Positions 18,566-38,111 are shown, numbered from the stretch's first letter. The stretch is DNA of 64,000 nt from an uncultured Pseudomonadota bacterium (GCA_963736005.1 CAVTNB010000003.1:453445-517444); one strand, 5' to 3'. Made by a program: numbers and translations. Notes: a model not told the origin generated them from the sequence alone.

Positions 18566-18576
18566 TTATCTAGGCT

Positions 18577-18633
18577 GTAGCAGCGGACCTTTAGGTCCGC
18601 TAAGCCAAAGCGCAGCTAAAGGTGCGCTGCTAC
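18577..18633. repeat. Inverted pair of REP-like palindromes (family B, GTAGCAGCGGACCTTTAGGTCCGC)
   Basis: Other copies at 52028-52050, 52062-52083, 56294-56317, 57095-57115 and 60597-60620. Confidence 0.8.
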
Positions 18634-18640
18634 AATGACG

Positions 18641-18787
18641 CTAGGAGAGAACGGATTCGCGATAGCTCTCCATGATGTTGCGCACGTACGCCTGGGTCTC
18701 TGGGAAAGGCGGGACGCCACCGTATTTGTCGACGGCCGCGGGGCCCGCGTTGTACGCGGCGAGGGCGAGGTCGACCTGACCATGATA
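18641..18787 (-). pseudogene. 3' half of interrupted lytic transglycosylase
   Basis: [35 protein letters not shown] matches the SLT C-terminal motifs. Confidence 0.93.
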
Positions 18788-18842
18788 ATGGCAGGGACTA
18801 AGTGCGAACATACCTAAAGGACCGCCAACTGAGGTTTCTCCT

Positions 18843-20605
18843 ATGGTAAGTCCGTTCAAAGGTGGGGGATGTATGCGAGGGTTTCAACTAAAACCCAGGC
18901 AGACAAGAAGCTGTCGATCCCCGTTCAATTGGGCCTAATGAGGGCACATGTCAAGTCAAGTGGGTGGCAGGAGGTTGCAGCTTTCGAGGAGCCGGGGAAG
19001 TCCGGCACATTGGTCAAGCGTCTGCCTGTCTTGAATGGCCCTGATCGAGGAAGCCACTGGCCCAGCGCCCCGCTTCGACACGGTGCTAGTTTACGACATT
19101 TCCCGCTGGGGGGCCGCAACACGGATGCAGTCTTGGCAAAGGAAGTCATACGCCAGCGGGGGATTCGAGTAATTTATCTCGCCGAGCAAACGGGCGAGAC
19201 TGAGGAATCGGAGGACATTGAGGGTGCTGTTCGAATGGCTTGCCAAGATGCACAGCCGGTGTTCTGGCGCGCAAGGTTCCCAAAAGTCAACGTGAAGCAG
19301 TCAAGGAGGGCCGCTGGGGCAGCGGAGTGCCGCAAGTGTTCGGGTACTTCACACAAAAAGGAAAAGGTCTGGTCCCCAATCCACAGACGGCACCCATAGT
19401 TCTACAATGTTTCAAGAAGTACGCTGCTGGTGATCAATCCGCTCGATTGCAAAATGGCTAAACACAAATGTTTCAGCCCAGCGAGGCGGATCGTGGCGTA
19501 GTGGAACGGTCCACAACCTTCTTACTAGACGCGCGTACCTCGGGCACATAACCTACGGCGCTGCACCGAGTGAACGGTAAGCGTGTTCGACTTTCGACTC
19601 GAAGAGAGAACGGAAAATCCTAACCAGTACAAACGACTTGTGCTGCAGAGACTTTTCGATCAGGTTCAAGAACGTCTCAGCCGTAACGATCAGAGCCGCG
19701 CAGAAGGTTGTCTCAACGGAATGTGCTCGCGGTTGTCGGACGGTGCAAGTGCGGTTCAACTCTAACCTTTCAAAAAGGTGGTGGCCCTCGCAAGGACCGC
19801 AAAAAATATCGCTCGCTGGTTCTGGCACTGCAGCCGCTGTCGCCTGAATGTTGATCCGAGGCGCAATTTCGAGGGGTGCTACGGCTACTTTCCGCAGGAC
19901 GTAGTCGAGACGATGATTCGGGATAGGATGCATTTTCTTCTTGCTGCTGGTGGAATAAAGCAAGCCGTTCAAGCATACAATGCCGCTGCTGCTCAGGCCT
20001 CGGAGCCACCGGAACTTGCTACTCTCAAAACGATGGTCGATGGTCTCAGGAAGCGTGAGCGCAGCCTCGTTGAATTCATCGGTGACGGTTCTCGAAGTTT
20101 CGATGCCGTTGCCGAGGACCTGGAGAAAGCAAACGGACTGCCAGGATGCAGAAGAAAAACCTAGCACAAGTGCTGGCTCGGGTCTGCCAGATTCAATCAC
20201 CGATTGACGAAGCAGAGATTGAAGGCGCTTCTGATAAAATCCGCAAGGCCCTCAAAGCCGGAGACATTGCCAAACTAGCAGTTGTCTTACCTCACCTTGT
20301 GTCGAAGATTGAAATAGACTTCACGTTGCGACACGATACCGCAAAATACTGGCGCAGACGGGCACAAGATTTTCTTGAAACTCTTGCAAGAGAAACTCGC
20401 AAGAAGTGTGACGAGAAAAACATTTCTAGATTGGAAGTCCGCGTATGATGAAAACGACAAATTGCAGGCCGCTGCTCATCGTGGTCTCGTCATGCATCTG
20501 AAGTACGACATAGCTAACCTGGCTTCAGCCGGTCAAGAGGCTCTCGAAGCAGTTGGCGAGTATGCCCACGGGCACACTTCGGAAGCGTTACTCTCCAAAG
20601 CCTAA
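18843..20605 (+). pseudogene. Large serine recombinase (integrase), multiply frameshifted as assembled
   Basis: YARVST catalytic Ser, SIPVQL, EPGKSG; other frames give DTVLVYDISRW, FGY..LVPNPQTAPIV, SIAKWLN...W..GTVHNLLTRRAYLG, a Cys cluster and a coiled coil. Ends are approximate. Confidence 0.85.
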
Positions 20606-20622
20606 ATTCAACCGCATAACCC

Positions 20623-20647
20623 AAGAGGGCGACGGCCCTCTTCTTTT
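20623..20647 (+). terminator. Intrinsic terminator after the integrase
   Basis: AAGAGGGC-GACG-GCCCTCTTCTTTT. Confidence 0.65.
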
Positions 20648-20660
20648 CAAGGAAATTTCA

Positions 20661-21011
20661 ATGTCCGCCACAACCGTAATCAATTCATCCATAAGCCCAG
20701 GCCAATCCGTCTCGGGGACTTTCATGACGTCCGCTCCCTTCAGAGGGGTAGAGATTGTTCAAGAGCAGACAATGGCCCAACCAACCTTTCCCGGCGTGTT
20801 GGTCTCCTACCAAATCAGCCTAGACAATGGCACCACATGGTCAGATGCCCAGCCGGTTCAGCACGAAGCGAATGCCAGTATAAGTGGATCGGGAAACTCA
20901 AGCTCAATCTTGCTAAATGAATTCGCCACAACTGTAAAATTCAATGCGACCAACACCAACCGAGCCGTAGCATGCGCCTCCTTTGTGTTGGAGGCGGAAT
21001 GCTTCACCTAG
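20661..21011 (+). CDS. Small beta-rich hypothetical protein with Asp-box-like motif
   Basis: AAGGA SD, ATG 20661; YQISLDNGTTWS. Confidence 0.65.
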   Translation: MSATTVINSSISPGQSVSGTFMTSAPFRGVEIVQEQTMAQPTFPGVLVSYQISLDNGTTWSDAQPVQHEANASISGSGNSSSILLNEFATTVKFNATNTNRAVACASFVLEAECFT

Positions 21012-21393
21012 GATGAGATACTTAGAAGCCTCATCCCGAAGCAGTTGCGAAGCACCCGGAGATTCAAAACAGCTATTGTTGGATCGTTGAAAATAAATGC
21101 GGCAACCCCCAATGTCTGAACCCACTTCACCAGCTTGACAAACCGAAGGCTAAGAAATGAGACAGAATGATTTTAATTAAGGCAGTTTGCGTTGTACTTG
21201 TGCGCCTGGTTCTTAGCTTCTTTCGGGGCAAGAACTAATGACGAGGATCGACCGGCAGATTGACCTCGTCTTAAATTCCAAGAACCCGAGGCTCGCCAAG
21301 TTTCTTTTTGGAGAACGTGGGCTTCCGTTGTTGGAAGTTATCAAGCAACTAAGGGAACAAAAACCAACGGTAAAATCAGATAAGGATTAAACA

Positions 21394-22238
21394 ATGGGAA
21401 ACTTTCAAGATTTAACCGGACAGCGTTTCGGACGGCTAACAGTACTGCGATTGGCTGATAGAACTAAACCAGGATACTACCGTTACGAGTGTCTGTGCGA
21501 CTGCGGGAAAACTACCATCGTCCAGGGCAATGCCCTGCGCTCCGGTACAATAAAAAGTTGTGGGTGCCTGCGCCTGGAGCGGCTAAGGGAGTCTCTCCGC
21601 AGACGAATCGTACTGTCCGGCCCAGGGTCACCTAAATTTGCAGACCTTACAGGTCAAACATTTGGCAGGCTTACTGTTCTAGGTTATGCTGGCAAAAAAG
21701 GCGGGAGCACCTATAATTGCCTTTGCACCTGTGGCAACACAAAAATCGTCCTCGGGAGGTCTTTAACGACCGGCGCAACCAAGAGTTGCGGATGCCTGCT
21801 CATGCAGTTTGCCCAGGTTCCCTCCCGGTCATGCAGCCAGAAACTCTGTGCTGGATGCTTACAAACGAAACGCCCGTACGCGAAGCATCCCCTGGGAACT
21901 TACGGACGAACAGGCCTTCGCCCTATTCGAACAACCTTGCTTCTACTGCGGAGCAGCGAAGTCTTAACTCTACTGGACTGGGCGTACAAGGGGGAAAACC
22001 CCGCTGGAGAACTCCCTTCCAATATAACGGCATAGACCGTGTAGACAATTCTAAGGGCTACACGTCGGATAACGTAGTACCATGCTGCCACACCCATAAC
22101 AGAATGAAGCTCGATCTGACCTCTAGTCAGTTTTTAGATCAAGCGAAACAGCTTGTTATGATGTCCGAATCCCGAGCCGATCAGCACCTCTTTAACGAGT
22201 TGTCTCCTGAAGATTTCAACGGAGACTGGTTTGACTAA
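21394..22238 (+). pseudogene. Phage-type HNH endonuclease with two N-terminal DLTGQxFGRLTV repeats, two frameshifts
   Basis: First frame: repeats with CxCxCG and KSCGC. Middle frame: YKRNARTRSIPWELT...PCFYCG. Last frame: NGIDRVDNSKGYTSDNVVPCCHTHNRMK. Confidence 0.82.
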
Positions 22239-22310
22239 AAAGAAAAGGAGCCCCACTTTGCGTGAAGCTCCCTTAGTGAACCAGATTTCTATTCGATACG
22301 CTTGTCCTTT

Positions 22311-22490
22311 CTAGACCTTAGTGCTATGGGTTGCGGTCACGGCTTCTTCTAGAGCTTCCGTGAACTGTTCAATCCCGACCTTTGTCGAGAGGTTGAACAC
22401 ACCGGGAGTGCCGGTGTCAGTGTAGGCAATTTTCCAACTGCTCCGCTTCACGCCCGCTGGATCAGTCAGCGTGATTGTGTAGTGCTCCAT
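22311..22490 (-). CDS. 59 aa hypothetical protein (below the ORF-track cutoff)
   Basis: AAGGAG SD; MEHYTITLTDPAGVKRSSWKIAYTDTGTPGVFNLSTKVGIEQFTEALEEAVTATHSTKV. Confidence 0.6.
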   Translation of the reverse strand: MEHYTITLTDPAGVKRSSWKIAYTDTGTPGVFNLSTKVGIEQFTEALEEAVTATHSTKV

Positions 22491-22535
22491 TTTGATTTCT
22501 CCTTTGGTTTCTAGTGATTAAATGGGGCGATAAAT

Positions 22536-23659
22536 CTAATTGATGATCACGGTGGAGGTGGTGAAGGAAATGGCTTCGCTACCGGACTGGTCACGAGTGT
22601 GGTTACTGGGATCAGAGGCATGAACGACTATGTTACAAGAACCCGGTCCAATGGGCGTAACCGTGTATTGATCTTGATTGTCTCCGATTGGATTATCTGC
22701 AATTGTTGCGATTCCCGAGCAACGATCCGTCTCAGAAAATGAATAGCTGTCGTTTGTCGCGCCGGTTGCCGTGAATGTCTGTGCGAAGGTTGCACCGGTT
22801 GCAGTAAAGTTTAGCGCCGATGGATTTAGGGAGAGCGGTGCCGAGGTGTAAGCAACTAGTAGAGTTCCAAGCACGACTGAAGTGGTGCGCTCGTGGCCGT
22901 AATGGTATCAGTTGTTGCAGTGCCACCATTGTAGGCGTATGTAACGGCTGCGCCTGGTGCGCTCACGGATGTGGGATTGATCGTGGCAATGGAAGTCTGC
23001 GTGTTCGAGAGATTCACGGTTAGGGAATTCCCGGAAGAATCAATAAAGTTTCCGGGTCCGAGGATCGTTGCACCGCTTGCGTCCAAACCCGCGACGTTAA
23101 GTGCTTGACTCAGTGCTGTCCCCAGGAAAATTGGATTCGTTGCCAAGCTCATCGCAATACTGGAGACAACACCATTAACGCTTATATTTATTGTGTTGGC
23201 AACTCCAGCGAGTACCAAGTAGTTCACGGTTGCGGCACCGAGTAGATTACCAGTCGCACCTGAACCTCGGTAGAGCTTCACGGCAAAAGAATCTTCCGCT
23301 ACGGGTGCATTAACGGTGATCGAGCATGTGACCGGGGGTCCAGGAACGCACCGGGCGAGGTCGTGGTCAAGTTCTGGACAATCGGAGTGCCACCGTTGAT
23401 TGATATACTGACCGAGCCGGTTCCGGGAGAGATAAAGAAACGGTGGAACCTCGGTGTAAAGTCAACTGATGACACTCCTGTGCCCTGGCGGTGCAGGTAT
23501 ACGAAAGTAGAAAGTTACTGGTGACTTTGGACCTGATTGTGAGTGTGTGACCGGCGCAAGAGCACCGCCCCCGCCACCTCCGCAACCAAACATTATGGCC
23601 GCGACAACAATGGCAAGTATGCCGACTACCAGACCTATTCGATGATGAGTCAAAGTCAT
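22536..23659 (-). pseudogene. Ser/Thr-rich lipoprotein with Ig-like domains, frameshifted
   Basis: Lipobox MFGC-GGGGGG; fragments 23462-23659, 22856-23281 and 22536-22874 read as one beta-rich protein. Confidence 0.7.
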
Positions 23660-23798
23660 TTACTTTTTCCCTTTCTTGATCTTGAGTGAATTGCGATACA
23701 GAAAAGCAAGGACCTCGGGAGCGCAAGTCCCGTCGAATGTGCGAAGTCTCTTCTCTTAGGGATTCGTTTAGGAACGGGAACCTCTGGTCGCGAAAACC

Positions 23799-24170
23799 TC
23801 ACGAATGCATCCTGCGAACAGGTGAACAACCGCGTGATAGACAGCGGACCAGAACGTGACGCAGAGTAGAAATCCCGTGAACCAGATCAGTGGTAGCTCG
23901 ATAGCGTCGAAGATTTTCTGGTGAGTTTTCATGTGACTGCACAAAGCTCGTCGAGGTACTTAGCGTAGGCCCGGTAGACGTAGCACCGAGCTTCAGACAG
24001 ACGAAGAAGAAAGCATTCGACCATCCGCTATGGATGTTTTTGTGAGTGACGACCCAGACACGCGGACCCTGCTCCTCACCTTCAGGAACGATCAAAGCCC
24101 ATAACTCTGAAGTGTCGCCAACTGTAACGCGCCACAGGGCAATGACTTGCGATGGTTGTGAAAATTGCAC
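23799..24170 (-). CDS. Hypothetical protein
   Basis: 123 aa ORF with no recognisable motif. Confidence 0.3.
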   Translation of the reverse strand: MQFSQPSQVIALWRVTVGDTSELWALIVPEGEEQGPRVWVVTHKNIHSGWSNAFFFVCLKLGATSTGPTLSTSTSFVQSHENSPENLRRYRATTDLVHGISTLRHVLVRCLSRGCSPVRRMHS

Positions 24171-24316
24171 ATAGGATAATCTTCTTTCAGACGGAGCGGG
24201 CCGAGAATTATTAGTGCTCCAGCCGCTAGTAGTATTGACGGCTAGAAGCGCGGAACCCTTGAGTGTCCGTCATACCGGAACAGGAGTAGACGGAGCTGTA
24301 GGGGACACAAGGGTCC

Positions 24317-24560
24317 ATGCCCGGATACGCAAGGTTGCCGTAACCTGAGCGCCGAGACGTTCTCGGAGGCCCAGAAGCTGCTCATTGAGGCAACCAGGGC
24401 AGGCAGGCGGGTAAGTATGAGTGCTATTGTGGAGATTGCAGTGGCCCGCTTTGTGAAGCGACCTCCGAATGAAGTCGCGACCGCACTCAAGGGCGTAAAA
24501 GCCAGAAGATCACCGCCAGCTAAAGAAGCCGCTAAACCAACTTTCAAAAGAGAAAATTGA
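24317..24560 (+). other. Possible ribbon-helix-helix DNA-binding protein (5' frameshift)
   Basis: Stitched reading RKVAVNLSAETFSEAQKLL...VSMSAIVEIAVARF fits the RHH pattern. Confidence 0.35.
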
Positions 24561-24561
24561 A

Positions 24562-24975
24562 ATGACCATAAATGTGCCCTTATATGCTTTTGCTCAGGAT
24601 GGATTCAACGGAAGCATACAGGTCGATACCATAGTTCTGGAATGTCAGTTTGACCAACAAGTCATTGCTCCGGTGAACCCAGGTGAAGAAGCCAATCAGA
24701 TTCCACCGAATCAAACCGGTTACCGAAGAAACGAGCCGATGTGATCCCTCAATTCCCAATTGCTTCCGTGGAGCTATCCCTTGCCGGTGGCTGTCAATGC
24801 CGAGCAGTGTTTCGCAATTTTGTCGGTAACAAATCCACAGAATCAAACCACGAACTACAATTTTGTAATGATGGATTACCTAACGATGAATATGAACACG
24901 TCCCGAGCGGTCTTTGAAACCCTGGGCATCAATCGACTCCAAGTAACGATCACCAAGTGGAATCGAGTTTCTTAA
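24562..24975 (+). CDS. Beta-rich hypothetical protein, probably one frameshifted gene
   Basis: Adjacent ORFs 24562-24744 and 24760-24975. Confidence 0.45.
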
Positions 24976-25067
24976 CGGCTACGAAAAAGAAGAAGTCGCA
25001 GCACTCGCCACTGAGTAGCAAAAAGAAAAGCCCCTGAAGATCAGAAGCTCAAGCGAAGGATTTAGAG

Positions 25068-25926
25068 TTAGTAGCGGCGGATTCTCTTGTACGAGTCCTT
25101 CGATTCCTTCGGTCTGCCTCTCTTTGGGGGCTCCAAACTCAGACCGAGAATCGAGAGCAGACTAAACCCAGACTGATAATTCTCACCAGAAGCATTGAAC
25201 CCAATCTGTCGATTTCCCGAGTATGGACCAGCACCGAGGATGATGAGCGCTGACCCATTACGCGACTTCCTGACTGATTGCGGATGTGAGCATGGCGCGG
25301 ATCGACGTAGGACCCACGCCTTACCTGTCTTGGGTGATACGTAGCCGCCTATTTCGAGCATCTTGGCAATATCACGCAGGGACTTGCCCTGAGCCTTCCA
25401 TAGCCTTCGCGCGGCCCAAATGCTTCATCGCAGCAGGATCAGGAACGATTGAGTACTCTGACGGGTCCATCCAAAGGGGGTCCGAGAGTAGCTTTATGGT
25501 GTGCTTGATGAGCCAGCACGTCGCGCACACGCTCAGATGCGGATTTTCTCTCCAGGCAAACACGTTCACCATGAGGTTCAAAACCATTCGACCTGTTGGT
25601 GCGGTGTCCAGTGACTCACCAAGCGAACACAGTGCAACATTGTGGCGGGCAAACAACTGCAACAAGAACTGACAATCTGCAATGGATCGAGTTAGACGAT
25701 CAAGCTTAGTGACGAGCACAGCGGAGACTTCACCAGCACGAACCATTTTGATTAGCTGATCTATGCTAGGGCGCTTGAGTGAGCTAGCGCTGGCATTGTT
25801 CACGATGATGTCACTAAGGACTCGATCCGTTGCCACCGCGTAAGCGGCTAGTTTGTGCTGCTGCATTTCAACGCTGTTGGGCTGCTCCGAGGTGGAAGTT
25901 CGAGCATACCCGAGTACCTTTGCCAT
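25068..25926 (-). pseudogene. Resolvase/invertase-family serine recombinase with C-terminal HTH, frameshifted
   Basis: GYARTSTSEQ, KRPSI, VTKLDRLTRS, DTAPTGRMV; other frame LRDIAKMLEIGGYVSPKTGKAW. True 3' end uncertain. Confidence 0.85.
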
Positions 25927-26659
25927 TGGAAACGCCTCCGTTCAGTGCCTACCTACTGAACATTCTACTCCTACCCTACCGAAACCGCAACCTGGCAAAA
26001 TCCCTTTTTGAGGCTGTTTCCTACCCTGCAGCCTCCGATTCCATGAAGGGGACCCTTACGTCGATTCTAGCCCGGTTTCCGGCCAATTGTGGGTATTCTG
26101 GAGGGGTGGTGCCTGGACACCCTGATTCTTGACCCACCTGGACCGGGCCTGAAAGCGAGCAGCGGAGCGCGAGCGGTAGCTCGGAGAAGCCTTATGGTGC
26201 CCAGGTTGGAATCCTAAGAGTGCCGATACCTTACTTTTAGTAAGTTCTTTTTGGCCCCCTTAGCTGGGTCGGCAACGTAAGCAATTTTAGCGAGCGATGA
26301 GGTGGTCCATTGAAGACGGTCGATCCTGAGGCTTCCCTACCCTCACCGCAGCACGATCCAAGTACGCGGGGTATCTAACCATCCAAAGCGTGATCGAACA
26401 CCCCATAATGGTCAGTCTGTTCACTCCTGGTCAGAACTGCACACTGCCGTATACTGGCCGGTATTTTCAAAGTCTCTATCCATGCGGGTTTGCGGGCGAA
26501 ATCCTTGCCTGATCCATCCTCGCTCCTTGGCAGGGGGAACTCTTGCGGCACCGTCCTTCGGGACACAAATTGTCCCGCACCACTAGGAAGTTGCTGGCCC
26601 CCTAGCGCCGATTGCCAAATCCAAAAATCTGACCGGCTCGATAAAAAATTCCAGAAAAA

Positions 26660-26740
26660 ATGCGGTCCCTAATCCGGTCCGTATGCGGTCCGTATAGGTT
26701 CGGTATAGGGTCCGAATGCGGTCCGCGATCTGCGGACCCT
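26660..26740. repeat. Tandem 11-bp repeats (consensus ATGCGGTCCGT), 6-7 copies
   Basis: Units at 26660, 26672, 26683, 26694, 26705, 26716 and a variant at 26730. Confidence 0.85.
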
Positions 26741-26766
26741 ATTTCCCCACACGAAAGGTAAAACAA

Positions 26767-27621
26767 ATGACTCTTTCCACGTCACTAACCTGCGAGAACT
26801 GTTCAAAGACGTATCAGCCCGAGCGAGCCAATCAACTTAAATACTGTTCAAAGAAATGTCGACGCGCTGCAATGAGACAGCGAAAAACCCAGGTTGAAGT
26901 CCCTACGCCTGAGCCCACGGCAGATACCCAAGCTGACGGGCCCTTCGCAGGGTTCCCTTTGATAGAGGCTCAGATGGGCGACGTGCGGGCCAATGAACTG
27001 TTCGCGGAACTAGGGCGACGTGATTCAACCAAGGCAGAGATCGAGTCACTGGTTCGTAAAGAACTGATCCACCGAAGATTGGAATTAGAGTACCAAACAA
27101 AGCGCAGCGGTGGAGAGCCTGACCTTCCCGCCCTCGATGAAATCAAGCGCCTGGAACTGAGCATCCTTCGGCTCAAGGTTGACCTCGGACTGAATTTTGA
27201 CCAAAAGAGACAGCGCGGGTCGACCAAGACAACTGCTGGGCAAATGATATCCGGCTTTTTGGATGTATTGGAAAGATTCTCGCCGGACCAAAAATTGACT
27301 TTCGACCGCGAACAGACCGAGGCGCTCGCAGCGGCACAGACGCGCGTGGATGCACCAGACTTTGGCAGCAGATACAAAGAGACTCGCGAACGTGAACGTC
27401 AGGAAGAAAATCCCGGGCGCGCTGCTAGTGATCGACGAGTCAAAAAGCTCATCGAGGACGCGGAGCGCTCGGGGAAAATTCCGTCTCGATCAGGTGCAGC
27501 GCTACCGCCATTGGACGAAGCACTTCCATTGGATGCACCCACTGAAGTCGCTGATCCCGTTGAGAATCCAAGCCCGAACCGGTTCCAGAAGAAGCTCCCC
27601 CACCGGCACCTGGTCATCTAG
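26767..27621 (+). CDS. Zn-finger protein with possible terminase small subunit-like region
   Basis: CENC...YCSKKC; PALDEIKRLELSILRLKVDLGL resembles the P27-type TerS C-terminus (weak). Confidence 0.5.
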   Translation: MTLSTSLTCENCSKTYQPERANQLKYCSKKCRRAAMRQRKTQVEVPTPEPTADTQADGPFAGFPLIEAQMGDVRANELFAELGRRDSTKAEIESLVRKELIHRRLELEYQTKRSGGEPDLPALDEIKRLELSILRLKVDLGLNFDQKRQRGSTKTTAGQMISGFLDVLERFSPDQKLTFDREQTEALAAAQTRVDAPDFGSRYKETRERERQEENPGRAASDRRVKKLIEDAERSGKIPSRSGAALPPLDEALPLDAPTEVADPVENPSPNRFQKKLPHRHLVI

Positions 27622-27881
27622 CTGGGCGTCCAGCTTTGACTCTGGAGCAGGCGCGCGAGCAAGCCAACAAAGTGTTTAGCAGAGGCGGCACAGGCTTGGC
27701 GTTGGACGACTTCCGACTCCCAAGGTCCACAAACAGGTAAGGTTTTAAATATCCCAGGAATCTAGCGGGACAGACAAAGCTTATGGATAAAGGGATAGAG
27801 CAACGCAAAAAAAGATTCTGTAGGAATACTGTTGACAAACCTTGAAAAACCTGATAGGCTACGAGAAGATGTGAGGATTCC

Positions 27882-27911
27882 TTGACAAGCTGTACCCAAC
27901 TATGGTATAAT
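27882..27911 (+). promoter_or_regulatory. Consensus sigma70 promoter
   Basis: TTGACA-18 nt-TATAAT with extended TG. Confidence 0.8.
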
Positions 27912-27957
27912 ACCTTGTGATGGGCAGAACTTACACTTTGTCGCGTGATCTAAGATG

Positions 27958-27988
27958 AACCGCCTCTGCCCAGGCGGTTTTCTATTTT
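27958..27988 (+). terminator. Intrinsic terminator ~45 nt after the promoter
   Basis: AACCGCCT-CTGCCC-AGGCGGTT-TTCTATTTT. Confidence 0.7.
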
Positions 27989-28557
27989 GTGAGGAGAGGC
28001 CAGTTAAGAATCGCTGGACACACATTTGGGACGCTAACGAGGGGCAACTCGATCCGCTAAAGGTGCTTAAGAAAATAGCGGAGTGCCAGTGTGACGACTG
28101 CATTGCCATATTCTTGTTGCTTCAGAAGGCGCAGATAGCGCATGAATCAGGCGGAGACATGCGAGCGGTTATGATGGAGGCCTACGAGCTTGACGTGAAG
28201 GGATCAGAAGTGTTGGAGGCACCTCACTTTGAACCTGAGGGCACCGATGAAGAGACAGACTAAGTCGAAGCCCGTGCTCGCCGCCCTCGGGCTCTCGCGG
28301 GGAAAGATGCGGCTTCGAGTGATCCCGTGCGATTGGGACTCTCCGATCCTCTTTGCGATTCCCGAACCGCGAAATCGCCCGCAATGCAATGGCGGCATTC
28401 GAACACGCCGAGGCCGGATTGCGCGGTGCCGATCAATGGTGCAAGAAGTGTCGCCGCTACGTCCTCTGATCTAACCTAAAGCAAAGTTTTCAAAGTTTAA
28501 TGGGTAGCACCGGCTACTCTTGTTCATTTGTTCCCGGAGGATTCTCAGTTGGTTTAG

Positions 28558-29109
28558 ATGTCAGAACCCCTACAGATCGACCGCAGATGCATTGTCTGCG
28601 GTCAACCGCTTCACGGGCGACAGATAAAATTTTGCGATTATCAGTGCGAAGTAAAGCACACAAACGAATCGAGAGCACAACGCAAGGCAAACGGCAGACC
28701 AGCGGCAGGTTACTGCCTGAACTGCAAACAGTTTACTCGGTTGCGCTTCATCGAGAGAACGTTGTGCCGATCCTGTTGTGACCGCAGAGACAACCCCGAA
28801 GTTCTTGCCGAACTCAGAGACCGCACCCGTCAAATTGCAATTGCAGCAGAACGGTGCTACAACCCGGCTTCATGGGCCTGGGAAACCCTCGTCCATGAAT
28901 ATGGCATCGACCCTGAGCTTGTGGAGATTCTTGCCCCATGTGGGAGGCACCAGACAGCCTTTACAGGGCAATCGTTAAGGGAAACTTCGGGTCACACCCA
29001 TGCGGACGAAAGAAGAAACCACGCCGGTCAAGTGAGGTTCCTGGCGAGCAACTGCCGCAGACCCCGGAGGCCTGGTGAAAGAGTTTCGTGGAAACTCAAA
29101 GGTCTGTAA
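28558..29109 (+). CDS. Cys-rich zinc-finger protein
   Basis: CIVCG...FCDYQC, CLNC...LCRSC. Confidence 0.6.
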   Translation: MSEPLQIDRRCIVCGQPLHGRQIKFCDYQCEVKHTNESRAQRKANGRPAAGYCLNCKQFTRLRFIERTLCRSCCDRRDNPEVLAELRDRTRQIAIAAERCYNPASWAWETLVHEYGIDPELVEILAPCGRHQTAFTGQSLRETSGHTHADERRNHAGQVRFLASNCRRPRRPGERVSWKLKGL

Positions 29110-29187
29110 ACAGCATACTAATAGTGAGAAGAACTTTTCTCGTACCCAGTCGGATGACGAAAACGTCACCAAATGAATGGAGGTCTA

Positions 29188-29445
29188 ATGCGAATTACTT
29201 TACTGCGCGTGTTGCGTCAAATCCACGAAGTATCACTTCAGGACTTAGCGGAGGCCTGTGAGATGACTGCCCAGCGGATTTCACTGATCGAGCTTAACCG
29301 CGCTAATCCTTCTTTGGAACAGAAGAGAGCATTGGCTACCTTCTTCGGTGTGCCAAGTTCAATGATCCTCACCCGCGTCGACAATAACTTCTTAGCCGAA
29401 CTCAAGCAAGCTGCTGTCGACAAACTCACAGCGGCTGTCGCCTAA
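29188..29445 (+). CDS. XRE-family HTH regulator
   Basis: LRVLRQ..VSLQDLAEACEMTAQRISLIELNRANPS...LATFFGVP; GGAGG SD. Confidence 0.88.
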   Translation: MRITLLRVLRQIHEVSLQDLAEACEMTAQRISLIELNRANPSLEQKRALATFFGVPSSMILTRVDNNFLAELKQAAVDKLTAAVA

Positions 29446-29481
29446 CTACTCAAACCACTTCATCGGAGAAAAGGAAAACCC

Positions 29482-29964
29482 ATGACCACAGAACCAAAAC
29501 AGCACTGCATTCGTTTCCGCTACCTACGCAACATTTCGATTCACCTGCCGAACGGACAGATTGCAAACATTCCACACCGCACGGTGCCAGTGCAAACGTC
29601 GATCCCGGTAAGGGGATCGAGACCGGTCGAATACTGGCAGGCGATGAGTTCGGAGTTTGACCTTACGGTCATACATGAGGTCTGCTTAAAATCAGAAACG
29701 CCCATGGTGCCCGAGGACACAGACTCTCTCACGCCACTGATGCGCGCAGAAGTCGAGAAAGAAGCCATTGCTGCCGCCAGTGCAAACCGTCGCGAGAATG
29801 ATCGAGTAAGACGCTACTTACACGGCCTCGCCGCTGAGAGTACCTCAGACCTGGGTGACGGCAGAATCGTGACCATACCAGCCACCGTCGAAATCGTTAG
29901 CGACAGCGAAGCAACGGCGATGCGCCCGATGCAAACCCATGTGAGCGAGCAGAATAATGGATAA
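29482..29964 (+). CDS. Hypothetical protein
   Basis: AAGGA SD, 160 aa. Confidence 0.65.
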   Translation: MTTEPKQHCIRFRYLRNISIHLPNGQIANIPHRTVPVQTSIPVRGSRPVEYWQAMSSEFDLTVIHEVCLKSETPMVPEDTDSLTPLMRAEVEKEAIAAASANRRENDRVRRYLHGLAAESTSDLGDGRIVTIPATVEIVSDSEATAMRPMQTHVSEQNNG

Positions 29965-30316
29965 CGCCACCGACATTATCACTCGACTTGAACACATGCT
30001 CCAAAGAAAGCACAAGCTCGCGGTTCTGTTCCAACAGCTAGACGGTGAACTGGGCGGGGCAGCGGCAAAGGTTGCCGAGCTTCAGACTGAGCTTCGCCGG
30101 GAGTGGAATTCCAAACGCCTCTGGGCCCACTCAGATTCGCCGGATTCCGTTGCTATGCGTGATCTGTTGGACCGTCTCGAAATTCTAAGAGAAACGCTGC
30201 AACCCGAGCGGCAGAGTGTGCTGCTGCCTCCGAATTATCTGCCTGGGAATTCTCCGTTCGGCACCTCCGTCAAAATGGATGCAACGAAGGGAATACATGA
30301 AAAGTCGCTCCGCTAA
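29957..30316 (+). CDS. Hypothetical coiled-coil protein
   Basis: Overlaps the previous stop; helical heptads. Confidence 0.6.
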   Translation: MDNATDIITRLEHMLQRKHKLAVLFQQLDGELGGAAAKVAELQTELRREWNSKRLWAHSDSPDSVAMRDLLDRLEILRETLQPERQSVLLPPNYLPGNSPFGTSVKMDATKGIHEKSLR

Positions 30317-30348
30317 CATTCCGAGGAACATAAGGCTCCGATCACATC

Positions 30349-30594
30349 GTGAAAGCCGCGACCTTCTGGATGTCTACGCCTGTGGCCGAACGCGGGAAAC
30401 TTGAACGCGAAACAGCCACCTCTGTCGGACCTAAGAAGGTTGCAACTCCTGAAATGATCAGCACGGTTAGGAAGCGCAACGCTGAAAAGCAGCGCGAATT
30501 GAATGTCAGAGAAAAGGTTGCCCGAGTCATCGATCCCGCCTTTCGAGAGAAAGAGCGCGCGGAAATTGAGAAGCTCCTCGATTCGACATACTAA
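30349..30594 (+). CDS. Hypothetical protein (true start may be near 30297 with a frameshift)
   Basis: Charged helical ORF continuing the operon. Confidence 0.45.
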   Translation: MKAATFWMSTPVAERGKLERETATSVGPKKVATPEMISTVRKRNAEKQRELNVREKVARVIDPAFREKERAEIEKLLDSTY

Positions 30595-31136
30595 AAGTAT
30601 TGGGCATGGCGCACACGGCTATATGCAACGGTGCGTTTGCAACCCAAGGCCTGAACGTTTTCAGTAACAAGTAGGGCCACCGGACGAATCCCGAGTTTGT
30701 TTTTGGAACTGACCTCGCAAGAGGCCTTAGACAACAGCGGGATTTGTCCCCAAGATTTTCAAGGATTACCCGAGCCCACATTGCCTTGAGGGCGAACCCC
30801 CCATCCCCTTGTGGATTCCATCGGATGGTCCCATGCAACCGACCATTTTCTTCATAGCGTGGTGCGGTTGAGCGAGCGGTACTCATTCTACGCGCTCGAA
30901 GTCCTGGCTTCATTTTCGGTTGGGCAACACTCGCGGGTAACTTGGACGGTCGCCCGCGAGGAAGTTTTTCTCATGGCACAGTTTCTATCGTGGTTCTTTC
31001 CTTTACACGATTTGAAACACGGGAATATGGTGCTGGCCCCGGTCACCTAATGCCGCAACACCGGGCACACTTTTTCAGAAAGTTAGATTTTTTTGCGATT
31101 TCGAAAAATAATCGAGCCCACTCGTGACCCCGCTAG

Positions 31137-31334
31137 TTTCCCGGTATATGCGTAAGACCCCAACCCGGAGAAGATTTTGAAAACTTACTTCACAGGTTCA
31201 AAAAGAAAATTGCCTCAAGTTTTATTCTCGGTGAGTATCGCTCGAAACAAAGCTACAGAAAGCCGAGCGTAGCCCGCAAGAGCAAGCATAATTTGGCGTT
31301 GAAAAGACGCCGTAAAACTAATTCCACAATTTAG
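31137..31334 (+). CDS. rpsU: Ribosomal protein bS21 homologue (no in-frame canonical start as assembled)
   Basis: PGICVRPQPGEDFENLLHRFKKKIASSFILGEYRSKQSYRKPSVARKSKHNLALKRRRK fits the bS21 pattern L.RFKK....IL.E.R....Y.KPS..RK.K. Confidence 0.8.
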   Translation, partial: FPGICVRPQPGEDFENLLHRFKKKIASSFILGEYRSKQSYRKPSVARKSKHNLALKRRRKTNSTI

Positions 31335-31482
31335 AAGGAACACCAAATGACCAAGCCACTCACATGGGAAGATTTTCCACCACCGTTGACCGATGAACAG
31401 ACCCGCATCATCGCCACATGGATCGAATTATCGGAATCCCTGTGGATGATGCGACTGTTCGAAACTTCCGGGATGGTGCAAG

Positions 31483-31665
31483 ATGAAGAGACGTAATCGC
31501 AAGCGCAAGCGCATTGAGGACCTTGAGGCTGCTAACGAGTGGCAAGCTTTGGAGATGATGCGCCTTCAAACTGCACTCGCATTCATCGAAGCAAGGCGCG
31601 CAGCGTATCCTCACCTGCCGGACTCGATCCGACTAGCCACCCCCGCACTGCGAGAAATAAAATGA
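31483..31665 (+). CDS. Small hypothetical protein
   Basis: 60 aa, coupled to its neighbours. Confidence 0.5.
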   Translation: MKRRNRKRKRIEDLEAANEWQALEMMRLQTALAFIEARRAAYPHLPDSIRLATPALREIK

Positions 31666-31955
31666 CAGAGGAAATTTACCGTTGTGTTCGGCGAGCGCGT
31701 TCTGTTGCCGAGATGCCGTGGCCGTACTCGACTATAGAACGACAGATTCACAAGGCCCGCAGTCCGAAGTGGTGCATGGCATGTAAGATCATGATAAACA
31801 AGGGTACGGAATATGTTTCCCTTTATGCTGGGCTTAACTACCACTACTTCCATTTGTCCTGTGAACCGTCACGAGACGAAGTCGAGTTGACGACATTGAA
31901 AAGCTGCAAGCGGTTGTGTGGGGTGCAGTTACCTATTCAAGAGAAACTATTGTGA
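31662..31955 (+). CDS. Small zinc-binding phage protein
   Basis: KARSPKWCMACKIMINKGTEY...FHLSC. Confidence 0.6.
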   Translation: MTEEIYRCVRRARSVAEMPWPYSTIERQIHKARSPKWCMACKIMINKGTEYVSLYAGLNYHYFHLSCEPSRDEVELTTLKSCKRLCGVQLPIQEKLL

Positions 31956-31969
31956 AAGTGAAAGTGAAA

Positions 31970-32212
31970 ATGAACAAAAAACTAGCCAATAGTAACCTGA
32001 AACGTACAACTAAACTTGTGGCTGCTGCAATAATCAGCCACTATTCAAAGAACAACTTCCCTTCTGCGGCTGCATTGGCCGCTGAGTTGAAAGTTTCTGC
32101 CCGCACGGTTCAACGCTCGTTCAGTGAGCTACGGGAACGCGGGCTACTCAAAACTGACAAGCGCGACGGGCGCGGAAACGAATCCACCCTAGTTCGCCAA
32201 GTCATTCTCTAA
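31970..32212 (+). CDS. Winged-helix DNA-binding protein
   Basis: FPSAAALAAELKVSARTVQRSFSELRERGLL. Confidence 0.8.
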   Translation: MNKKLANSNLKRTTKLVAAAIISHYSKNNFPSAAALAAELKVSARTVQRSFSELRERGLLKTDKRDGRGNESTLVRQVIL

Positions 32213-32259
32213 TTCACCGGATCACCCGGTCACTAATACGCAAAGGAAATCAAAGAAAC

Positions 32260-32475
32260 ATGACACACTCTGAAGTGGAGTGCGCCCTTCTTGAATTTGG
32301 CCTATGGCCCGAGAAGGTCGAAATGCTCCTCGATAAGTACGAACCCGAGTACCTGGCACGGTTTATCCGCGCCATTGATTACCTGGGCAGCTACAAGTCA
32401 GCACAGAAGTTGGGATTCCTCCCGGCGCATATATGTGCGGAAATCCGCAAGGGTCACGTTCCCCGGAGAACCTGA
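32260..32475 (+). CDS. Hypothetical protein
   Basis: AAGGA SD, 71 aa. Confidence 0.55.
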   Translation: MTHSEVECALLEFGLWPEKVEMLLDKYEPEYLARFIRAIDYLGSYKSAQKLGFLPAHICAEIRKGHVPRRT

Positions 32476-32490
32476 AAGCCAAGAGCCGGG

Positions 32491-33513
32491 GTGACGACGA
32501 TGACCGCCAAGTCTAAAACCTCGAAGCCTTTCTGTAAGTTCCCCAATGAGTTCATGGGATTGGACCTAACCCCACGAGCAAAAATGGTGGCTGTTAGATT
32601 GATGGCCTATGGTGGAACGTCGCGAGCCATCTATCCGCGCCAGGATCGACTAGCCAAGGAGACCGGTCTGTCTGTGCGCTCGGTTCGAGATTCGATCAGG
32701 GAACTGGAAAAAGCCCATCTAATCACCAGTGAGCAGAGGGGAAGAGGTTGCTCTAACCGGTGCTACCCTACCCCGAAGATGGCCGTAATGTTTGACTATC
32801 AGGGGCAAACCGGAGACCCAAGCCTACGACAAAATGTCACAGATGACCGGCAGATTCCGTCGTCAAGACCGGCAGATTCCCCCGGTCAGGATGACGAAAT
32901 TTGCCGGTCCATAGTAACAGAGCAGTCTAATAATAGATTATCTGTAATAGACGGAAATTTGGGTCAAGACCAAAATAATGGTAGATCAGCTAATCATGGT
33001 AATGGCTGTATTGATGATTATGATGCATCTGCTCTGTTATCTAATGGGCAAGCGTCAATAGAACCAAAACCTCCTTGTGACGGAATTTGCCGGTCATCTA
33101 TGACACTCCCAGACCGCATCGGCTACGACAGGATGGTAGCCGTCGCGGGCCGATCCAACGCCGACCTCCTCCGACTGTGGGGCATCGAAGGCGGGACCGC
33201 CGAGGAACTGGGTGCCGACTTCGACCGAACCAGAATCATAAACCAAATTCATTGGCTACCCTATCGTGCGGGGAAGAAGCCAAGCGGCGTTCTGATCCGG
33301 TCTGTTCAAGACAACTACGTGCGTCCTGATCTGACGGTTTCGGAGATAGCCGAGGTTGAAGCTGCAATCTCCGAAGGTCTGGTCCCGATCCAATCAATCG
33401 AGAAGGCGTTGAAAGCCGAGGATGAATTCGCTACGTCACAGTATGTGCAGCCCGAGACTACTCATGCTCCCGGCTGCAACGATCCAACGTGCGAAGGCTG
33501 CGACCTCTTCTGA
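32491..33513 (+). CDS. Phage-type replication initiator with N-terminal winged HTH
   Basis: IYPRQDRLAKETGLSVRSVRDSIRELEKAHLI; low-complexity middle encoded by iterons and an AT-rich tract. Confidence 0.78.
   Translation: MTTMTAKSKTSKPFCKFPNEFMGLDLTPRAKMVAVRLMAYGGTSRAIYPRQDRLAKETGLSVRSVRDSIRELEKAHLITSEQRGRGCSNRCYPTPKMAVMFDYQGQTGDPSLRQNVTDDRQIPSSRPADSPGQDDEICRSIVTEQSNNRLSVIDGNLGQDQNNGRSANHGNGCIDDYDASALLSNGQASIEPKPPCDGICRSSMTLPDRIGYDRMVAVAGRSNADLLRLWGIEGGTAEELGADFDRTRIINQIHWLPYRAGKKPSGVLIRSVQDNYVRPDLTVSEIAEVEAAISEGLVPIQSIEKALKAEDEFATSQYVQPETTHAPGCNDPTCEGCDLF
32845..33095. other. Putative replication origin (iterons plus AT-rich region)
   Basis: GACCGGCAGATTCC at 32845 and 32867; inverted variants at 32896-32909 and 33082-33095. 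Confidence 0.7.
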
Positions 33514-34017
33514 ATCGGAGAGGGTGAGAACTAAAGGAAAAGGCCCCCGGAGGGGCCTGGGTTCGTCACCGCTTTGGTTTACGGCTACCGAATGTGATCT
33601 TGATGTTCAACAAAGTTAGGTGGATTATTGGAAGGAACACCTGTACATTTGATTACCTTTCGCTGTAACCGAATCGGGCGGTGTTTTTTCCTCGTATAGT
33701 ATACCACATCGAACGCGGGCTCTACAAATGGAAGCCAGAAACAAAACCAAAGTTACTTCGTGGTATAATAGAAGCTCTCTGCAATCTCTGGGGTAAGGGG
33801 AACGCATGGCTGATAACAGAGACATTGCGCTGGCACTGGCACCGATAGGGGCCTAGGTTGGCGGTGTAACCGAGGCTCTGAAAACTTTTGTCCAAACACT
33901 CCCCGATGATGTGCGGAACAGCAGCACGTTAGAGATTTTTGAGCAGAAGATGCTAGACAATCTAACGGGGATCAATTCGGCATTGGATTTGACCGGGCGT
34001 CTGTTAGGGGCTTGGAA

Positions 34018-34179
34018 ATGAAGTTCGGAAAAATCCGCAGAGGCTTGTACAAAGCTGGCTCTATCTTGGGCGATGCCGGAGCGCTGTCGAGCGGCAAACC
34101 CAAGAGGATCGTGAAGCGCGCCGAGACTCACATCCTGTGGCGATGGTTGGGCCCGACACTGAGGAGACTGTTCCGGTAG
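34018..34179 (+). CDS. 53 aa basic amphipathic protein at the element's right end
   Basis: MKFGKIRRGLYKAGSILGDAGALSSGKPKRIVKRAETHILWRWLGPTLRRLFR. Confidence 0.55.
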   Translation: MKFGKIRRGLYKAGSILGDAGALSSGKPKRIVKRAETHILWRWLGPTLRRLFR

Positions 34180-34262
34180 GTCCCCCGGCACCCGGATTTT
34201 GGTGAACCAGGCGCGATGCCCGAGCCCTCGCTCATATCTAGTTGCACTTCGTCTCTACCGGT

Positions 34263-34805
34263 ATAGCGATCGAGCAGTTCCCGCAAAAGCGTGGTGCCAC
34301 CGTCAATATTTTGCGCCGGATCGAATGGATTTTTCACGCCGAGTGACTTTGCCGTACCCGGCATGAGTTGCATGAGCCCCATAGCACCGGCTTTCGAGAC
34401 CGCGTCTGCTTGGAAACCAGATTCTTGGTTGATCACCGCGTTGACTAGCTGAGGATCAACTTCATGCCGACGGGCTGCATCGCTCACGATGGACCCGTAG
34501 CGATGGAAACTCGGCCGCGGGGTTGGAGTGGATCCGCCATTGCAAGATGCTTTGGGCGCGGGCGTGCCGACATTGATTTGTCTCAGCGCTTGCATGAGCT
34601 GTTTCTCGAGGGCGGACAACTGATGCGAGAGATCGCGAATGAGCGCTGCGAATTGTTTATCGATGCTCGAAAACGAGCTGGCTGACGAAGGAGCCTGCGC
34701 GGGTTCCCCCTCTTCTTCTTGCTCGTTCTGGCCAACCGGCATCATTGGATTGTAGATTGGCATCTGCGTCGGCATACCGGCGGGATTGGTTGGGTTGATG
34801 TTCAT
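34263..34805 (-). pseudogene. 5' half of interrupted lytic transglycosylase
   Basis: GGAGG SD; AVINQESGF (catalytic Glu), AGAMGLMQLMPGTA, PFDPAQNIDGG; homology stops at LLDRY. Confidence 0.93.
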
Positions 34806-34862
34806 GAAAGCCTCCACCTTAGGGCAGCGTCACACCTGTTATCACGCGCATCGACGCAGCGT

Positions 34863-36167
34863 CTAGCGCAATGCGCCGGCGATCTGTACCAGCTTCTCGA
34901 CCGCGTCGGTTTGGCAGCCCCGTTCGTGGAAAAGAAAACTTTCGATGCGCTCGCGTTGCGCGACCGCCGAGTCAAGCAACGGGTCACCTCCTCGCACGTA
35001 GGCACCGATGGCGAACAGGTCTTCGGCGCGCTCGAGTGCGGCCAGAGCTTTGCGCACCCGCGCCGCGCAGGCAAGGTGTTCCTCGGAAACGATGTGATGC
35101 ATAACCCGGCTGGAGCATCGCAAGACGTCGATGGGAGGATATCGGCCCGCGTCCGCGAGCCGGCGTGAAAGGACGATGTGACCGTCAAGCAATCCGCGCA
35201 CGGCATCGGTGATCGGCTCGAACGGATCATCTGCATCCACGAGGACTGCAAAGATGCCCGTGATGCTCCCACGCTCCCGAACGCCAGCTCGCTCAACGAT
35301 CGTCGCCAGTTTGACGACCATTGAGGCCGGATGACCTCGGTGGGCTGGAAGCTCACCTGATGCCAGCGCAAGCTCTCGCCAGGCGTTCGCTACTCTGGTA
35401 AGAGAATCAACGGTGAGCAAAACGTCGTGACCACGCTCGCAGAGCCATTCTGCTTGTGCGATTGCGGTGCGAGCGGCCGCGAGTCGTTCGTGTGGAGGCG
35501 CGTCGGCGGTAGCGCAGACAATGCTTGTTCGCGGCCAGCGCGGTGTCTGGCGCAGTGCCGTGACAGTCTCTGCCGCCTCTCTGCCGCGTTCTCCAATCAG
35601 TGCGAGGACATGCGCATCGAAATGCGCGTGCTCCGCGATCTGCCGCAATAACGTGGATTTTCCAACGCCGGCCCCGGAAAAGAGTGCGACCCGCTGGCCA
35701 ATGCCGATCGTACAGAGTGCGTCAATAGCCGTAATGCCGGTCTGAATGGTTCGTTGGATCGGACGGCGCCGCTCCAAATTCAACGGGCCATCGTGAACCG
35801 CCATGACCTCGCAGTTCGGATGGGCGGGACCGCCCCACGCATTGACGCACCGTCCCAACAGGCCCTGGCCGCAAAAGGATCCTAAGACAGCGCGGGTCGC
35901 AGTTACGTTAGCACCAACCGTGACGTCGCGAATTGACTCGATCGGCACGCAGGTCGCTTCCCCTTCAGACACTGAGCGCACCTCGGCGAGACGGATGTCA
36001 TCTCGCTGCGTCTCGATCGCAATGAGATTGCCAGGCGCAACTCCTCGGATGCGCGCGACGACTGCCGTTGGCTCGACTCGCAACACGGTGCCTACGCGTA
36101 CCCATCCGTCGCATTCTCGATAGCTCAGCGGCATTTCATGTCGCATCCAAGTTTCCAGTGTCAGCAT
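34863..36167 (-). CDS. fliI: Flagellar/T3SS export ATPase
   Basis: GAGVGKST, LIGERGRE, DSLTR, LDGHIVLSRRLA..GRYPPIDVL. Confidence 0.93.
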   Translation of the reverse strand: MLTLETWMRHEMPLSYRECDGWVRVGTVLRVEPTAVVARIRGVAPGNLIAIETQRDDIRLAEVRSVSEGEATCVPIESIRDVTVGANVTATRAVLGSFCGQGLLGRCVNAWGGPAHPNCEVMAVHDGPLNLERRRPIQRTIQTGITAIDALCTIGIGQRVALFSGAGVGKSTLLRQIAEHAHFDAHVLALIGERGREAAETVTALRQTPRWPRTSIVCATADAPPHERLAAARTAIAQAEWLCERGHDVLLTVDSLTRVANAWRELALASGELPAHRGHPASMVVKLATIVERAGVRERGSITGIFAVLVDADDPFEPITDAVRGLLDGHIVLSRRLADAGRYPPIDVLRCSSRVMHHIVSEEHLACAARVRKALAALERAEDLFAIGAYVRGGDPLLDSAVAQRERIESFLFHERGCQTDAVEKLVQIAGALR

Positions 36168-36709
36168 TCCGCAGCCGCCCGAACCAAGAGTGCGGCCCGC
36201 GTCTGGATGTCTGCTTCGACACGCGATCCGTCGCAGTCGATCGTGACCTCGCCGAATTCTAAGTTTTCGTCGCTTTGGTGTGCCGAGATCGAATGAGGTG
36301 TCGGCCTACCTGCGGCGGCAAGCGCGTCGTCGACGAAGCATGCAAGCGCTTGAGGATGCACAAAAGCAACGTGGCGTAATGCCCGCCCGCACGCGATGGC
36401 CGCCAGCCGAATCGCTTCGTTGCGGATGAGCTGTCGGTGATCGCAGACTGGCGGCGTGCGGTCTGCAGAAAGGTCGGCTTTTGCGGGCTCAAGGTCGGGG
36501 GACTCGATTGACGGGTGGGGCTCGACAGGCGCGACTAGTTCAACCGCTACAGCCGAACTCTCTGATTCGCTGTCCGCTGCGGCGTGCTCGGAGGGTTGGA
36601 GCTGGCTGTGGCACTCCCCAGCCTCATGAACCTCAAGCCCGCGAGTCAAACCGGCAAGGCGGCGAGGCGTGAAGGGCAAGAATTCCACCTCAGGTGTGCG
36701 TTCGTCCAT
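36161..36709 (-). CDS. fliH: Divergent FliH-like protein
   Basis: Position before fliI; C-terminal GEVTIDCDGSRVEADIQTR. Confidence 0.6.
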   Translation of the reverse strand: MDERTPEVEFLPFTPRRLAGLTRGLEVHEAGECHSQLQPSEHAAADSESESSAVAVELVAPVEPHPSIESPDLEPAKADLSADRTPPVCDHRQLIRNEAIRLAAIACGRALRHVAFVHPQALACFVDDALAAAGRPTPHSISAHQSDENLEFGEVTIDCDGSRVEADIQTRAALLVRAAAEC

Positions 36710-38108: not shown

Positions 38109-38111
38109 CGC

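Follow-up and report, generated by a model that had tools for sequence, protein, structure and literature searches.

Whether an element that splits a gene serves its bacterial host as a switch, or is simply a passenger that has knocked the gene out, is the question raised by a 64,000-nucleotide (nt) stretch of DNA from an uncultivated soil bacterium, CAVTNB010000003.1:453445-517444 of assembly GCA_963736005.1 (the window). In the window, a minus-strand gene for a lytic transglycosylase of the SLT family is divided by a 15.5-kb island that carries serine recombinase genes, and an earlier note on this DNA had proposed that its excision could gate the cell-wall remodelling needed to build a flagellar-type apparatus. 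We conclude, with a probability of about 0.72, that the island is an integrative mobile element of the ordinary gene-interrupting kind, inserted by site-specific recombination through a serine recombinase. A selfish, recent insertion that knocks out the gene is the simplest reading, and no sign was seen of the host having recruited the element as a regulator. Its kind (a gene-interrupting serine-recombinase element) is already known, and use as a switch is not demonstrated.

The transglycosylase gene is split after codon 181 by the low-GC island at 18788-34262. Its 5' part begins with an ATG at 34805, behind a purine-rich ribosome-binding-site stretch, and runs for 181 codons to ...LLDRY, the last Tyr codon occupying 34265-34263; the frame of the 3' part resumes at 18787, includes AYNAG and stops at 18641. 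The triplet TAT is common to both gene pieces (ATA on the plus strand, at 18785-18787 and 34263-34265), and deletion of 15,478 nt yields a frame of 228 amino acids (aa). In the integrated state, the truncated gene runs through 44 foreign codons to a stop at 34128 (open reading frame [ORF] 34128..34817). The Pfam profile PF01464 matches the N half at 79.8 bits over profile positions 4-86 of 117 (E value of 1.5e-22), while an intact orthologue from the same genus (locus L002) matches at 102.7 bits over positions 4-106, across the break site. The motifs that we take to be those named E-S and GLMQ are in the N half, with AYNAG in the C half, such that the island separates them; the integrated enzyme should therefore be inactive. 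Truncation after residue 181 removes AYNAG together with the C terminus, and the enzyme is predicted to be probably inactive for as long as the element is integrated. No Pfam family was matched by the N-terminal 105 residues, and two further SLT paralogues are encoded in the same genome.

The uninterrupted form of the site was recovered both from relatives and from a metagenome. The window belongs to genome G000, a 2.84-Mb assembly in six contigs with 84% completeness; counts of relative genomes given here include the unpublished G008, G011, and G013, and no statement rests on these alone. The N half was found in 40 of the 41 genomes searched, and in all 10 of the relatives' loci that contain both halves, the respective tblastn matches meet with an overlap of exactly 3 nt. 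The L002 orthologue, whose N half is 92% identical, continues through the site uninterrupted. With the intact orthologue as the query, a match was obtained in 31 of 32 family genomes, and an orthologue-level match continues past the site to at least residue 227 of 231 in 28 of the 31 family genomes other than G000, the match through the site in G001 lying on two overlapping contig ends. The remaining three comprise G023, which gave no match, G045 (55% complete), which gave a match at paralogue level only, and G042, where the match ends at a contig edge at residue 188. G000 is the sole family genome whose match stops at an insertion; the element was seen in none of the 31 other family genomes, nor in any of the three further genus members.

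Contigs of four metagenome runs (X1 to X4) were also compared, the runs that hold this strain doing so at a depth of 2 to 4; X1 is a soil metagenome run with low-depth contigs and may be the source sample of the window. No RNA run appeared among those listed. An aquatic metagenome, X2, contains a contig of 33,314 nt (depth of 26.4, ~4-5% diverged from the window) that joins 18784 to 34263, omitting exactly 15,478 nt, with 3 letters at the joint fitting both sides. The agreement of the gene halves with the orthologues and with this contig is far beyond chance. The earlier note had suggested looking for the attB junction and for elements at the same site in relatives: the uninterrupted site is present in relatives and in X2, whereas no relative carries the element. 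Its description of the gene otherwise stands. The halves rejoin at the shared TAT without an insertion or deletion (indel), the coordinates holding and the intact orthologues and the metagenome contig agreeing; the SLT domain is split by the island, as judged by Pfam and motifs, which places catalytic parts on opposite sides; the gene is the last of a flagellar-type operon, with the order flgB-flgC-fliE-fliF-fliH-fliI upstream; and the interruption is exact, with two clean junctions, so that the element is excisable on paper.

The ends of the element point to the machinery that inserted it. Read as a circle junction, they form a pseudo-palindrome with 15/20 complementary positions, its axis falling inside the core, where it separates A from T. 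When 2,000 random 63-mers each from island and host were scored at their best axis, the maxima were 14 and 15, respectively. The part of the literature consulted (PMC3783163) describes the attP of phage A118 as a pseudo-palindrome about a central dinucleotide, and the element ends look like the anatomy of a serine-integrase attP. The gene for a large serine recombinase (LSR1) starts 80 nt inside the junction, which, together with the pseudo-palindromic attP, bears out the earlier assignment of the island to the serine-integrase elements. Across 10 orthologues, the attB region is conserved, with a mean pairwise nucleotide identity of 0.69 versus 0.49 gene-wide.

Two other architectures were considered for these junctions. 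A transposon with a 3-nt target duplication and terminal inverted repeats was rejected, since the symmetry axis falls between two bases of the core instead of on its central one, no transposase was found, and the recombinases are all of the serine type. For a nested or tandem second element, internal copies of the attachment (att) arms were sought, and none were found in the island. Joints of the attP or attB type were not seen in contigs of X1 and X3, where a depth of only 2 to 4 means that this says nothing either way.

Taken together, these features would fit the following course of events. A pseudo-palindromic attP would have recombined with an attB situated in the conserved, SLT domain-coding part of the operon-closing gene, and strand exchange at a dinucleotide inside the ATA/TAT core would have produced two exact junctions, leaving the host sequence without loss or gain. 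LSR1, 80 nt from the junction, would most likely have been the acting recombinase, and we infer this identity from the locus. The acquisition appears to be recent and strain specific. The element is probably still mobile; excision, which would require the integrase and a directionality factor, would, if it takes place, serve the element.

Composition and distribution are in keeping with a foreign origin of the island. Its GC content is 0.48 to 0.55, compared with 0.56 to 0.63 in the flanks and 0.586 genome-wide; G000 has one copy of it, and it was not found in 40 relatives beyond three 40- to 56-nt matches in G002. The core of a repetitive extragenic palindromic (REP)-like repeat that has 74 genomic copies has none within the island. 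Throughout the 2.84-Mb assembly, PF00239 and PF07508 have matches in the island only, and the catalytic-Ser motifs YARVST and YARTST are visible in its two recombinases. For LSR1, PF00239 matches at about positions 3-49 (8e-07; ORF 18869-19399), and PF07508 matches at 35.2 bits (cut-off of 21.1) over positions 10-64 of 102 in the stretch 19407-19568, which lies in another frame than the catalytic start and has a stop at its edge. Positions 82-142, 228-277, and 276-321 of phrog_95 are matched in order in three different frames. The second recombinase groups with proteins of 213 to 326 aa that carry PF00239 and often a partial PF07508. The features are collected in Table 1.

Table 1. Features of the interrupted gene, the element, and the adjoining operon (positions counted from the first nucleotide of the window)
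Feature	Position	Strand	Evidence or remark
Inserted element	18788..34262	.	15,475 nt; GC ~0.51 vs 0.59 genome; single copy
SLT gene, 5' part	34263..34805	-	Codons 1-181, ends DRY; PF01464 1.5e-22; 92% identity to uninterrupted L002 orthologue
Element-encoded tail of truncated gene	34128..34262	-	44 codons + stop
SLT gene, 3' part	18641..18787	-	Shared Tyr codon + 47 codons, AYNAG, stop; tblastn vs L002 96%, E 6e-29
Shared core ATA, beside recombinase gene	18785..18787	+ strand letters	X2 joint has 3 ambiguous letters
Shared core ATA, other junction	34263..34265	+ strand letters	X2 joint has 3 ambiguous letters
attP-type imperfect inverted repeat, arm 1 (element end)	18788..18805	.	15/20 complementary to other arm
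attP-type imperfect inverted repeat, arm 2 (element end)	34244..34262	.	Partner of 18788..18805
LSR1, large serine recombinase, reads inward	18869..20450 (3' limit approximate)	+	PF00239, PF07508, phrog_95; at least 5 frame pieces
HNH endonuclease, repeated N-terminal motif, split in two frames	21394..22238	+	phrog_374 3e-43; phrog_3322
Second serine recombinase, ~230-240-aa type	25270..25926 (3' limit approximate)	-	PF00239 1.9e-24 (25372-25926)
XRE-type helix-turn-helix (HTH) regulator	29173..29445	+	Profile match
Ribosomal protein S21 homologue	31137..31331	+	PF01165 44.4 bits (cut-off 27); phrog_21469
HTH_36 protein, replication-initiator-like	31916..32212	+	Profile match
Rep-like protein	32491..33513	+	HTH_36; replication initiation/O-like PHROGs
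FliI-type ATPase, just upstream of split gene	34863..36167	-	PF00006 4e-69, PF18269
fliH-like	36161-36709	-	Position + size only, no Pfam match
fliF with FliG_M-like tail	36690-38108	-	Operon
fliE-like	38112-38399	-	Position + size only, no Pfam match
flgC	38396-38884	-	Operon
flgB-like	38886-39206	-	Position + size only, no Pfam match
REP-like 26-nt palindromic repeat pair, inverted copies	18576..18634	.	Directly after SLT stop; host sequence

Among 144 stop-to-stop frames of at least 55 aa in the island, none matched a capsid, terminase, portal, or tail protein, and the island holds no tRNA genes. The element is plasmid- or satellite-like and not a recognizable complete prophage, with the reservation that noisy sequence could hide genes. 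Searches outside the window returned little. In 401 genomes of the phylum, Rep matched G000 itself and one weak HTH-only candidate, with no real relative; queries of viral contigs with Rep and the second recombinase yielded nothing usable, one Rep-encoding stretch being seen; and neither the exact 22-nt element end nor the Rep protein had a match in metagenome contigs. Within the Rep-like gene, iteron-like repeats occupy 32835-33105 (a 14-nt unit present twice at 22-nt spacing), and the same region contains 27-nt inverted arms that are 93% complementary, which suggests a replication origin within the rep gene. Elsewhere in the element, a perfect sigma-70 consensus promoter (12/12, with a TG extension) at 27882-27911 on the plus strand lies upstream of a 102-aa ORF.

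Much of the island reads as broken genes, which raises the alternative of a dead, decaying insertion, in which genuine frameshifts would have destroyed the recombinases and this strain would have lost the transglycosylase for good. LSR1 shows at least 5 frame changes in its first ~950 nt, the HNH gene and the second recombinase are each split, and the cover by ORFs of at least 200 aa is 0.22, the lowest of 537 genome windows (median of 0.87). In the protein collection, the LSR1 ORF found no homologue among longer proteins and only the window's own protein at similar length, and thus no independent copy. Against decay, the visible breaks in LSR1 are all changes of frame, and the X1 contigs match both flank and island with 0 to 1 substitutions per piece among the matches listed, while departing from the window in the island at six indel events (base 21800, in the HNH gene, is missing from a contig, and bases are added following 25490, 25505, 25507, 25551, and 26744), none of which is at a homopolymer. 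An alternative genetic code in the island was rejected, as the breaks are frame changes and not in-frame stops.

The effect of these indels was assessed with database homologues of the second recombinase, which were aligned to the window DNA both as assembled and after the four insertions supported by reads had been made. As assembled, P0003 (229 aa, 66% identical) aligned in two frames, residues 1-189 at 180 bits and residues 186-212; after correction, it aligned in a single frame over 1-212 of 229 at 224 bits. Alignments likewise extended from 17-144 to 17-230 for P0004 and from 4-195 to 4-234 of 235 for P0006. A short mismatching stretch with a stop persists in the corrected gene between well-aligned parts in the same frame and looks like one more compensated error pair outside the contig. 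ORF length itself did not improve uniformly, two of three frames becoming shorter, since more uncorrected errors follow. Differences confined to indels and the restored single-frame alignment thus argue for a noisy consensus rather than mutational decay. The island frameshifts appear mostly to be assembly errors, and genuine integrase frameshifts, which the earlier note had named as a mark of a dead insertion, cannot be assumed; where the sequence could be checked, the frameshifts were errors of assembly. We infer that LSR1 is intact in reality, and we regard a dead insertion as unlikely. Because the island noise consists at least partly of indel errors, gene calls in such regions of G000 are to be distrusted. 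Assembly quality is uneven elsewhere in G000 as well, other lower-GC stretches, e.g., G000:C1:5158-25000, also having very low long-ORF cover.

Several observations sit poorly with an integrative element placed by LSR1 and still intact beneath the noise. The zinc-ribbon and coiled-coil C-terminal part of LSR1 was undetected, the gene lying in at least 5 frame pieces rather than one open frame of about 450-550 aa, and LSR1 is covered by no independent sequence. The 1,023-nt Rep frame is unbroken, an ill fit to a uniform rate of ~1 indel per 200 nt. At the target, attB symmetry is 9/20, no better than chance, and the 40-nt window at the site ranks only 169 of 692 for conservation. Any 2-nt crossover within ATA is palindromic (AT or TA), which is unusual for serine integrases. 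In the serine integrases studied, recombination polarity depends on the central dinucleotide, as stated in the consulted part of PMC3783163, citing Ghosh 2003 and Smith 2004; a palindromic core would, by our reasoning, abolish polarity. Finally, no contig of run X1 bridges either junction among the matches listed, so the integrated junctions are known from this assembly only.

A regulated switch, which is the reading of the earlier note and would compare with active lysogeny, skin, or gin, would have cued excision rebuild the transglycosylase for wall crossing, possibly followed by reintegration. The exact interruption of a conserved, operon-terminal gene whose frame can be restored is what such a switch would need, the recombinase genes, assembly errors aside, are probably intact, and the island is noisier than its flanks, which would fit carriage by part of the sampled population. 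A domesticated switch is expected to show vertical conservation. Here, the element is present in 1 of 32 family genomes and 1 of 4 genus genomes (G000 included in both), is absent from the three other genus genomes, and encodes a Rep without relatives in 400 genomes of the phylum bar the weak HTH-only match. No excisionase- or recombination directionality factor (RDF)-like gene was recognized in the 144 island frames or in small end-proximal ORFs; as we know of no common family of RDFs, this is weak evidence. The operon reads into the minus strand of the element, where only unconvincing short frames precede a terminator-like hairpin at 33558-33541, and the two other SLT paralogues in G000 also count against the idea. 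The presence of more than one recombinase and the lack of recognized virion genes recall the description of gin (PMC5595907, seen in part). The switches that the earlier note had cited are linked with terminal differentiation or with infection of a host, settings that have no known counterpart in this bacterium. On this balance, its proposal of a host-used rearrangement switch is not supported, and we consider such a switch quite unlikely.

More doubtful still is a phase-variation-like version, in which a live element in part of the population would toggle the transglycosylase of a flagellin-less export machine. The noise confined to the island may reflect low read support and an element present in part of the population; were the toggle real, the contrast between a noisy island and clean flanks would mean that most cells have an empty site and that read support for the island is low, and a recombinase would be turning apparatus assembly on and off in a group other than the spore formers and pathogens. 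An assembly artefact, in which a plasmid- or phage-derived read was misjoined and no cell has an interrupted gene, could draw on the far poorer sequence quality of the island and on the lack of an independent junction-bridging contig among the matches listed, but is hardly credible, since a random chimera would not place both joins at the same 3-nt core without loss or gain of a host base, with that core at the center of a pseudo-palindrome made by the element ends and a serine recombinase gene 80 nt away, and X1 holds flank and island at or near 100% identity.

FliI and SLT genes are adjacent in 9/11 of the relatives' loci, and the order FliI-SLT-ZnuA is kept in 8/11. G000 has three flagellar-type loci: the window operon (34805-39206); one with two fliM/N-like genes, fliP, fliQ, fliR, flhB, and flhA; and one with flgF and flgG alongside a sigma-70-family gene, the latter two loci being L022 (G000:C1:1298000-1317900) and L023 (G000:C1:1458000-1472000). 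FlhA is present in 29 of 32 family genomes, and the flagellin domain (Flagellin_N) was found in 0/32 of them, including 0/18 of high quality. FliG_C was not found in G000, in which three rod-family proteins only and no hook were seen. Judged by gene content, the interrupted enzyme is part of a basal-body and export apparatus that is conserved and has no flagellin. Vulcanimicrobium alpinus, the one member of the phylum in cultivation, is described as having neither flagella nor a flagellin gene in the consulted part of its report (PMC9758169).

Further features of this neighborhood were noted. The C terminus of FliF contains a weak FliG_M-like stretch (residues 422-463, E value of 4e-4), and Atlas clusters of FliF-FliG_M proteins occur most often in Vulcanimicrobiota and Planctomycetota. 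Divergent from the operon, at 39318-44128 on the plus strand, are genes for a 594-aa GAF-PAS adenylate/guanylate cyclase and a 1,009-aa diguanylate cyclase with four GAF domains and GGDEF. The REP-like repeat has 153 blastn matches in G000 and a very high summed depth in runs X2 and X4.

The locus provides a clean natural attL/attR/attB set for an uncharacterized serine integrase from a barely cultivated phylum, with potential use as a recombinase/att pair once the integrase has been re-sequenced. It also carries a caution: most of what makes the island look pseudogenized is noise of the assembly, and calls of dead versus live elements in long-read metagenome-assembled genomes (MAGs) need read-level checks. 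Were excision shown to be conditional, gene-rearrangement switches would be known from outside sporulation, heterocysts, and the prophages of pathogens. The greater biological interest may lie in the host context, a conserved basal-body and export set without flagellin that has its own transglycosylase.

Flagella and type III secretion systems have peptidoglycan-cutting enzymes of their own, the FlgJ, SltF, and EtgA/IagB class. As in that class, an SLT-family enzyme is here encoded within the apparatus cluster; unlike it, the N-terminal 105 residues match no Pfam family, and the apparatus lacks flagellin in all 32 family genomes. Among recombination systems, the locus shares with the large serine integrases of phiC31, Bxb1, and A118 an integrase gene that adjoins the att site, with A118 an attP that is pseudo-palindromic around a short crossover core (PMC3783163, consulted in part), and with phage-type serine integrases in general an exact integration, with neither duplication nor loss, into a target within a host gene. 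It departs from the phage-type systems in having no recognized virion genes, a crossover dinucleotide that would be palindromic, and a second, shorter recombinase.

The closest parallels are elements that interrupt functional genes. Like the Listeria comK prophage and Staphylococcus phiSa3 in hlb, the element sits in a functional gene that it could reversibly control; those, however, are complete prophages whose conditional excision has been shown experimentally, according to the excerpts consulted (PMC7397523, PMC6597384), whereas here the structure is static only. In SPbeta in spsM (SprA/SprB) and skin in sigK, as here, a gene is interrupted by a serine-integrase element whose excision restores the reading frame; there, excerpts of the reports describe excision driven by a directionality factor that sporulation controls, in a mother cell undergoing terminal differentiation (PMC4191935, PMC5499854, PMC5025042), whereas this element is confined to one genome and no such control was seen. 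For gin in gerE of Bacillus cereus ATCC10987, excision during sporulation by GirC and GirX is experimental, as far as the consulted sections state (PMC5595907), while the present host is a Vulcanimicrobiota/Eremiobacterota MAG and no spore former, with a static structure only. In its architecture, the element nonetheless resembles gin as characterized in those sections (PMC5595907), both being nonphage elements with several recombinase genes that precisely interrupt a short coding region.

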